Source of the DNA: Escherichia coli
GTDB lineage: Bacteria > Pseudomonadota > Gammaproteobacteria > Enterobacterales > Enterobacteriaceae
Direction: 5' to 3' (one strand)
DNA: 64,000 bases
Assembly (NCBI RefSeq): GCF_030013595.1
Contig: NZ_CP122768.1
Shown here: in pieces, positions 61,394-62,003 of the stretch
How positions within the stretch are numbered: position 1 is the stretch's first letter
How the letters are laid out: every line of letters begins with the position of its first letter
The notes under the pieces: model-generated
What the model was told of the DNA's origin: nothing
Database searches by the model: none
Seen by the model: the letters and a program-made list of their open reading frames with translations, nothing else
Made by a program: the position numbers and the translations under genes

Positions 61394-61526
61394 CTTATAA
61401 TTAATCTTTAGCCTTGCGGCTTCGTTTAGCTGTGGCTTTCGCCGTAACAACCTCTAATTCTGGAATCACCACCGCTTCATGTTCCGGCTGTGGTTCCGGT
61501 TCTATTAAAGGAAGTTCTTCGTTAGT

Positions 61527-62003
61527 TCATCCGGCAGTATTGAAGATTTCCTGTTTCAGCGGTTTGCCGTCCACTGCAAAGGTAAACTCTTTAGTTACCA
61601 CTTCTTCATCGCCACCGTTCATAGCAACTTTAGAAATAAAGCCGTTGAAAGCGGTGCGAATACCAGTCTGTTTTCCGGCGTCAACATAATACTCTATTTT
61701 GATTTGTACTCTTGTGCCGTCTTCGGCAGCTTTGATCAATTTTTCGTGGACACTATCCCCGGGGATGTAATTCACCGTAAGAGTCAGATCAGGAACATTC
61801 AGTTTACCTACTAGTTTACGGTTATACTGAGAAGAGAAGGATTTAACTTCTACAGTACCGCGCTCGATACCAGTTTCAGGAAAACCAGCACACTCTTTAA
61901 TTTCTTCATAGCCCTCATGGTTGAGAGTGGTGTTAGTGGTATCGGCGTGATAGAACAGACTTACCAGACCACCAGTAAAAATATCTTTAAATTGCTGAGA
62001 CAT
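61527..62003 (-). CDS. Major tail (tube) protein candidate
   Basis: 158 aa, GGGG RBS, positioned upstream of chaperones and TMP. Confidence 0.5.
   Translation of the reverse strand: MSQQFKDIFTGGLVSLFYHADTTNTTLNHEGYEEIKECAGFPETGIERGTVEVKSFSSQYNRKLVGKLNVPDLTLTVNYIPGDSVHEKLIKAAEDGTRVQIKIEYYVDAGKQTGIRTAFNGFISKVAMNGGDEEVVTKEFTFAVDGKPLKQEIFNTAG

Follow-up and report, generated by a model that had tools for sequence, protein, structure and literature searches.

In this study, we analysed a 64,000-nucleotide (nt) stretch of Escherichia coli DNA (contig NZ_CP122768.1; hereafter the window) and followed up a feature at the 3' end of a prophage gene for the major tail tube protein. It had been noticed from the DNA letters that, beyond the TGA stop codon of this gene, the same reading frame stays open for 41 codons, and three origins had been proposed: a decorated tube variant made by programmed read-through of the TGA, a remnant of a longer ancestral gene, or a small independent open reading frame (ORF) with a GTG start. 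We show here that the in-frame extension is present (61404-61526, by translation of 61380-62003(-)). The original prediction had turned on whether the downstream frame is conserved in relatives, and we find that all 55 related loci keep the open frame, the TGA and the bases at +4 to +6, with insertions and deletions (indels) only in multiples of three. It is likely that the TGA is a leaky stop codon and that low-level UGA read-through by tRNA-Trp yields a minor, C-terminally extended form of the tube protein; programmed read-through is also the proposal that the comparative data favour.

In a single sequence the open frame is unremarkable and not beyond chance, as, of the 64 ORFs in the window that span 150 codons or more from stop to stop, 15 (23%) have at least 41 open codons past their stop, and its significance therefore rests only on the comparison with relatives. 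Tube loci were taken from complete E. coli genomes, from assemblies encoding database homologues and from IMG/VR, which gave a related-locus set of 55 loci with a tube protein at least ~81% identical, comprising 47 unique tube-plus-extension sequences and 24 unique extension DNAs. Every one of these loci has TGA-ACT followed by an open frame, with an extension of 33, 36, 39, 40 or 41 codons, and at none of the 55 is the tube stop replaced by a sense codon, TAA or TAG. The codon before the stop varies (GGA, GGT, GGC, GCT or TCT), as does the codon at +2 (AAC or TTC), and the TGA-ACT between them is invariant. All extension lengths (99, 108, 117, 120 and 123 nt) are divisible by three; the non-coding spacers beside the extension in the same loci measure 55, 56, 57, 60 or 61 nt and 17, 48, 49, 79 or 131 nt and differ by one or two bases. 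The indels in the tube extension all fall between the TGA and an in-frame GTG. Among the 15 of 24 variants checked, sense frame 0 alone is free of stops in all, the +1 and +2 frames having one to five stops each, and the at least 107 substitutions inferred on the tree created no frame-0 stop, where about 4% of random changes would be expected to create one.

By parsimony, 43 of the substitutions in the tube extension are synonymous and 64 non-synonymous, that is, 40% synonymous compared with the 24-29% expected under neutrality (P ~2e-5 to 2e-3). The pooled ratio of non-synonymous to synonymous differences per site (pN/pS) comes to 0.45 for the extension and 0.19 for the tube gene, which suggests modest purifying selection on the extension (omega ~0.45). 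Within this clade the synonymous divergence (dS) of the tube gene reaches ~1.3. A proline/glutamate-rich stretch and a basic end had been remarked on in the window; all tube variants have a net charge of -5 to -9 in the N-terminal part and of +3 to +6 in the final 14 residues. Relatives with a tube identity of ~72% or less have no extension; their tube genes stop at TAA, often in tandem, with a terminator directly after it. None of the RefSeq genomes examined has the extension annotated. It had also been suggested to look for a longer form in a relative; the 198-residue database protein P0003 (locus L024; ENA ERZ27280761 k141_243218), which has tryptophan at the stop position and was considered as a natural fusion, is a gene-calling artefact, because the short contig carries TGA there and the gene caller used a code in which TGA is Trp. 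On the opposite strand, the ORF at 61414..61689(+) was dismissed as a shadow ORF; it is broken in 4 of 15 variants.

A second copy of the arrangement is found on the major capsid gene. This gene lies beyond the right end of the window and was studied in the relatives L080 (NZ_CP122620.1, L080:26900-29185) and L081-L111. In L080 the 667-residue capsid gene is followed by 44 in-frame codons, TSVEPSEPSPDLGEENLIPEPEEESQTVTAKATAKKVGRPPKAK, by TAA and by a terminator near-identical to that of the tube gene, and among the IMG/VR relatives 31 of 31 close the capsid gene with TGA-A(C/A)T followed by 28, 42, 43, 44 or 45 in-frame codons, TAA and the same terminator. Across these 31 relatives frame 0 alone is stop-free in the capsid extension, and no in-frame start codon is conserved in it. 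The unit of TGA-A, extension, TAA and terminator forms a cassette. The capsid extension has the acidic-then-basic layout and the VTAKATAK core of the tube extension, and the blocks TGAA(C/A)TAACGAAGAA and GTTACGGCGAAAGCCACAGCTAA, together with the terminator, are nucleotide-identical in the two; judged by these blocks, the tube and capsid cassettes are paralogous. The capsid cassette is also present on contigs with a TAA-type tube gene, and the narrower distribution of the tube copy suggests that the capsid copy was its source. In all 41 unique extensions, tube and capsid together, the N-terminal part is acidic (-4 to -9) and the end is basic (+3 to +6), and at least 13 different C-terminal peptides are encoded among them.

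All 13 other ORFs of the tail module in the window (50242-63984 (-)) stop at TAA, the tube gene being the only one of the 14 with TGA, and of the 36 genes in L080, 31 stop at TAA and five at TGA, two of which, those of the tube and the major capsid protein, have TGA ACT. For the extension itself, the stop is TAA in the window and most relatives and TGA in four loci of the P0007 group. In E. coli K-12, UGA is read through at ~2-4%, with Trp-tRNA(Trp) competing with release factor 2 (RF2) (PMC10570021), and adenosines at +4 and +5 have been implicated in the effect of stop codon context in bacteria (PMC7026636). By analogy with this literature the tube TGA would be expected to be leaky. Its UGA-AC context (GGA UGA ACU) is shared with the leaky stop of the Qbeta coat gene (UAU UGA ACA). 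The work of Engelberg-Kulka in 1981 on UGA context is said to have found that a 3' A makes UGA leaky. No tRNA gene, and hence no suppressor, was detected in the window or in a 41-kb relative. Two other decoding events were considered and rejected. For stop-hopping, no landing codon after the TGA fits the take-off codon (GGA, GGT, GCT or TCT), which is itself unconserved. For selenocysteine insertion, an Rfam scan at a permissive E-value returned only chance matches driven by the terminator and no selenocysteine insertion sequence (SECIS) element, with no match near the gathering score, and there is no conserved structure 3' of the TGA.

If the tube TGA is read through as we suggest, RF2 would end translation for most ribosomes, giving the 158-residue tube protein, and a small fraction, probably about one percent or a few percent, would decode UGA with the near-cognate Trp-tRNA(Trp) and run 41 codons further. 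The product would be a tube protein of 200 residues with a disordered C-terminal tail, in which an acidic Pro/Glu spacer is followed by a short hydrophobic V-I-P-E motif and then by a tip rich in Lys and Arg; AlphaFold indeed predicts the extension to be disordered, with a predicted local distance difference test (pLDDT) score below 50. The predicted junction peptide of the tube protein is ...IFNTAG-X-TNEELPLIEPEPQPEHEAVVIPELEVVTAK, where X is the residue at the stop, or QEIFNTAG[W]TNEELPLIEPEPQPEHEAVVIPELEVVTAK with tryptophan, and that of the capsid protein, again with tryptophan at the stop, is ...VLHISE[W]TSVEPSEPSPDLGEENLIPEPEEESQTVTAK. In lambda gpV, the residues past the tube domain point outward from the tube. 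Because the tube domain here has the gpV fold, and gpV and many homologues bear outward C-terminal decorations, the tail would be expected to project outward from the tube. By analogy with lambda, the 784-residue tape measure protein suggests ~30 hexameric rings and thus ~180 tube subunits, so that with read-through of one percent or a few percent there would be only a few extended subunits per tail. A few tube subunits, and in the relatives a few capsid subunits, therefore probably carry a flexible acidic-then-basic peptide, and the paralogous capsid cassette in the same prophage family would place a similar peptide at low copy on the head as well as the tail. Its flexible acidic spacer and basic tip hint at a role in weak adhesion to anionic surfaces or in the docking of a partner protein. 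A bolder proposal, which we regard as a long shot, is that a portable recoding cassette was copied between the capsid and tube genes and serves two ends, namely low-copy display of a basic peptide on head and tail and, since the stop of the extension lies 3-5 nt from the terminator stem, occlusion of the terminator by leak-through ribosomes, such that the level of read-through would tune transcription into the downstream low-copy virion genes. In E. coli, the level of read-through changes with growth state and with temperature.

Several observations weigh against read-through, for which the evidence is wholly comparative. RF2 is more active in natural E. coli isolates than in K-12, and read-through may consequently be well below 1% in them. 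A search with RNAalifold 3' of the TGA gave no convincing read-through-stimulating structure, the consensus reaching only -7 kcal/mol. Some in-frame indels are located within CCNGAA repeats of a hexanucleotide-like kind, and such repeats favour lengths in multiples of three. In the capsid extension there are 17 synonymous and 56 non-synonymous changes and no synonymous excess, so that selection at the amino-acid level, as opposed to that on frame and composition, is not demonstrated there. Synonymous divergence is lower in the tube extension than in the tube gene (pS 0.28 compared with 0.41). Lastly, the 24-nt core common to both cassettes contains a mini-hairpin of the GNRA type with a 3-bp stem, which is kept by compensatory variants (GGA-GAAA-TCC, GGA-GGAA-TCC and GGT-GAAA-GCC) despite amino-acid changes; the identity of this core in the two cassettes and the compensated hairpin argue for some constraint at the RNA level, which could explain part of the conservation.

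These last observations are also what an explanation at the level of RNA or transcription would draw on, in which the ~120 nt and the terminator set mRNA stability or a transcription step-down after the two most highly expressed virion genes. The identical core, the compensated hairpin, the reduced synonymous divergence and the lack of a dN/dS signal in the capsid extension all fit such a role, as does the finding that the same terminator is always part of the cassette, after both the capsid and the tube gene. A purely non-coding element would, however, leave unexplained why 41 unique sequences lack a frame-0 stop and why their lengths change only in multiples of three. Nor would it account for the synonymous excess in the tube extension, or for an acidic N-terminal part and a basic end in all variants although the different C-terminal peptides are encoded by different nucleotides, and relatives do with a terminator placed directly after TAA. 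We therefore consider this explanation unlikely. It could also be framed in a ribosome-coupled version, in which leaking ribosomes reach the terminator, whose stem begins 3-5 nt past the TAA, and suppress it, so that the frame would matter and the peptide would not; as this version still needs read-through, it differs from our reading in the purpose and not in the decoding event.

The two other origins proposed initially fare worse. As a remnant left when a nonsense mutation truncated a once longer tube gene or a fused cassette, the extension would be untranslated and decaying, and would look conserved only through the close kinship of the prophages. The frequency of equally long open stretches past other stops in the window is compatible with this, and more distant homologues have short native C-terminal tails of a similar motif (NVIPEAVAAKEK and ...GRK). 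Yet with a tube dS of ~1.3, 24 extension variants, the substitutions counted above and several indel events, decay would have brought stops and frame-breaking indels, whereas no stop, frame break or loss of the TGA is seen in the 55 loci; moreover, the capsid gene independently keeps the same arrangement in each of its 31 loci. A remnant is thus very improbable. An independent small gene, starting at the in-frame GTG (VVIPE...) or by re-initiation coupled to the TGA, would yield a free peptide of ~22 residues and no fusion. A GTG does stand before IPE in nearly all tube variants; however, GGG replaces one GTG in the tube variant L058, and there is no Shine-Dalgarno sequence, the pairing with the anti-Shine-Dalgarno sequence upstream of the in-frame GTGs amounting to -3.5 to +0.3 kcal/mol compared with -5.9 to -8.4 kcal/mol for the neighbouring genes. 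This explanation would also leave unaccounted for that the frame is kept between the TGA and the GTG, where all the indels lie, and in the capsid paralogue not a single in-frame start codon is conserved. We hold an independent gene to be scarcely credible, and low-level read-through of the TGA remains the reading that we favour.

The features of the locus are collected in Table 1. As had been noticed from the letters, the extension ends just before a hairpin and T-run: the terminator scan and RNA fold place a terminator-like hairpin with a 10-bp stem (61396..61372 (-)) 5 nt past the TAA of the extension. Searches of Pfam and PHROG detected no domain in the extension, and hence no immunoglobulin-like (Ig-like) or FN3 domain, and a search with the 41-residue peptide alone against a database of 5.8 billion proteins gave no candidate, which is uninformative for a query so short and of such low complexity.

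Table 1. Features of the tail tube gene, its stop codon and the downstream cassette in the window.
Feature	Position	Strand	Basis
Major tail tube protein ORF, 158 aa	61530..62003 (TGA at 61527-61529)	-	ORF list and translation
Stop codon and 3' context: TGA (61527-61529), then ACT (61524-61526)	61524..61529	-	
Frame-0 extension of 41 codons, TNEELPLIEPEPQPEHEAVVIPELEVVTAKATAKRSRKAKD	61404..61526	-	translation of 61380-62003(-)
Parts of the extension: acidic Pro/Glu-rich linker, V-I-P-E motif, VTAKATAK core, basic end	61404..61526	-	
24-nt core GTTACGGCGAAAGCCACAGCTAAA, base-for-base match to the capsid-gene cassette of relatives	61425..61448	-	cassette alignment
Mini-hairpin GGC-GAAA-GCC inside the 24-nt core	61434-61443	-	
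Stop of the extension: TAA (61401-61403), TTA, second in-frame TAA (61395-61397)	61395..61403	-	
Intrinsic-terminator-like hairpin AAGCCCTGCCTTAATGGTGGGGCTT and T-run, 3' end of the cassette	61362..61396	-	terminator scan and RNA fold

The protein encoded upstream of the TGA matches phrog_158 'major tail protein' (E=6.7e-22) and, weakly, the Pfam families PF16461 (2.7e-5) and PF16460 (7e-4; Phage_TTP_12/TTP_11). Its AlphaFold model has a confident core with a fold like that of the N-terminal domain of lambda gpV, and Foldseek matched it to the lambda gpV tube structures 8k36 and 7t2e at E ~1e-7 and also to the YDC107 and NF5 tubes. Together with the gene position, the profile and fold matches establish that the 158-residue protein is a lambda-like tail tube protein. 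The gene is followed on its 3' side by a Gp38-like tail-fibre adhesin gene (168 aa), a pair of chaperone genes and the tape measure gene, and is preceded on its 5' side by a long tail fibre gene with a Peptidase_S74 domain. A tube-like N-terminal domain on this upstream fibre, as in the distant tube-fibre fusions described below, was considered and rejected, a usual fibre N-terminus being found. The adhesin gene (Gp38_N / 'tail fiber adhesin', phrog_1121; 60846-61352 (-)) separates the tube cassette from the chaperone genes; L018 and the TAA-type relatives lack it, and an unrelated 422-residue ORF takes its place in the P0007 group. The tail assembly chaperone pair (102 aa and 116 aa, 60115-60803 (-)) has its second ORF in the -1 frame, open from 60510 and overlapping the final 13 nt of the first (GAA AAC GAG GTA AAG TAA). 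The layout is the one usual for a G/GT frameshift, except that a canonical XXXYYYZ heptamer is missing; the A-AAG beside the stop is a candidate slip site.

The region is part of an E. coli prophage of ~35 kb, the whole layout of which is visible in L080. When ORF sizes in the window at ~45900-64000 were matched to the annotated L080:5983-40911, the prophage arm in the window seemed to begin near a serine-recombinase-like ORF (45972-47666 (+)), the remainder of the window being probably host chromosome; in L080, the prophage adjoins ycdY and the curli genes (csg). Of 5,426 complete E. coli genomes, 54 match the region, 18 of them over its full length and ~20 with the extension type. Megablast and blastn searches of the region against 50,697 phage records gave no match and thus no close sequenced phage isolate, and tblastn against the phage records gave two distant phages only, DCP80 and Vibrio V6Aob, both with TAA and without an extension.

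A different route to an extended tube protein may be used by a Buttiauxella gaviniae prophage (L113; NZ_LXEP01000044.1, L113:8995-9620), which was the sole match among species-representative genomes. Its tube protein is 45% identical and the gene ends in TAA. Two codons before this stop lies an in-phase G_GGA_AAC heptamer (9468-9474), which a spacer of 6 nt separates from an 8-bp GC hairpin (-17.2 kcal/mol), and the -1 frame is open for ~40 codons, is rich in Pro, Asp and Glu (PVTPPGTGGNPDPDYVATEPPTDEIDLPDVDLDDIINGAGT) and stops just before a terminator. On this single sequence, the prophage appears to use a canonical -1 frameshift for a tube extension, and the predicted product of 201 residues would mirror the 200-residue read-through product predicted in the window. 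The extension in the window is in the zero frame, and a canonical -1 site is present only in this distant relative. The capsid gene of the Buttiauxella prophage ends in a plain TAA. Closer tube homologues end in short native basic tails, ...[AGS]RK or, in Edwardsiella, ...NVIPEAVAAKEK, and many distant homologues of 700-1,500 residues consist of an N-terminal tube domain followed by a fibre and Peptidase_S74, one having an Ig-like domain instead. The tube-fibre homologues include P0048, P0088, P0128 and ~90 other representatives, Peptidase_S74 being an intramolecular chaperone. This suggests that the tube-like subunits of such phages carry fibres directly. Taken across these homologues, the C-terminus of the tube protein appears to be permissive and to be the site of decoration in this tube family.

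To our knowledge, recoding by UGA read-through is in bacteria essentially known from Qbeta-like RNA phages, DNA phages using frameshifting for the same purpose. We found no report of UGA read-through in the capsid or tube gene of a double-stranded DNA phage in the searchable literature, the coverage of which is incomplete, so that this is no proof of novelty. Confirmation would make the two cassettes a natural and well-conserved example of programmed read-through at UGA in a double-stranded DNA phage of E. coli. A leaky-stop cassette on both capsid and tube genes and a -1 frameshift in a relative would suggest that selection acts on low-copy C-terminal display on major virion proteins as such, and that one recoding mechanism can stand in for another. 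In practice, the cassette could be used as a natural scaffold for low-copy display and to sense UGA read-through in wild E. coli, and the case of P0003 shows how gene callers mishandle leaky-stop extensions.

The predicted system is most similar to the A1 protein of Qbeta (Allolevivirus). In both, the gene of a major virion protein ends in UGA with the same 3' context, a C-terminally extended product is made (here, would be made) at low frequency, presumably by insertion of tryptophan by tRNA(Trp), a Pro-rich flexible linker opens the extension (Qbeta ...KPDPVIPDPPIDPPPG), and no elaborate stimulatory RNA structure is evident. However, Qbeta is a single-stranded RNA phage with a folded extension of 196 residues that is essential for infection, whereas here a temperate siphovirus-like prophage with double-stranded DNA would carry a predicted-disordered extension of 33-41 residues on its tail tube and, in the relatives, on the capsid. 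Frameshift-extended major capsid or tail proteins are known from T7/T3 (gp10B), SPP1 (gp17.1*), the Listeria phages PSA, A118 and A500 (Cps and Tsh) and Lactobacillus A2 (PMC5009743). As in those systems, the most abundant head and tail genes would here be recoded at their 3' ends to give a fixed minority of extended, co-assembling subunits (PMC5009743), and, as in the Listeria phages, capsid and tail genes are both affected within one phage family. Unlike those systems, the window would use read-through of an in-frame stop and not a +1 or -1 shift, the peptide is short, acidic/basic and predicted to be disordered and not Ig-like or FN3, and one cassette with its terminator is common to both genes. 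Finally, the tube protein has the same fold as lambda gpV, and its extension begins at the point where gpV continues into its outward-facing Ig-like domain; in gpV and other natively decorated tubes every subunit carries the decoration without recoding, whereas here the stop codon would limit it to a minority.

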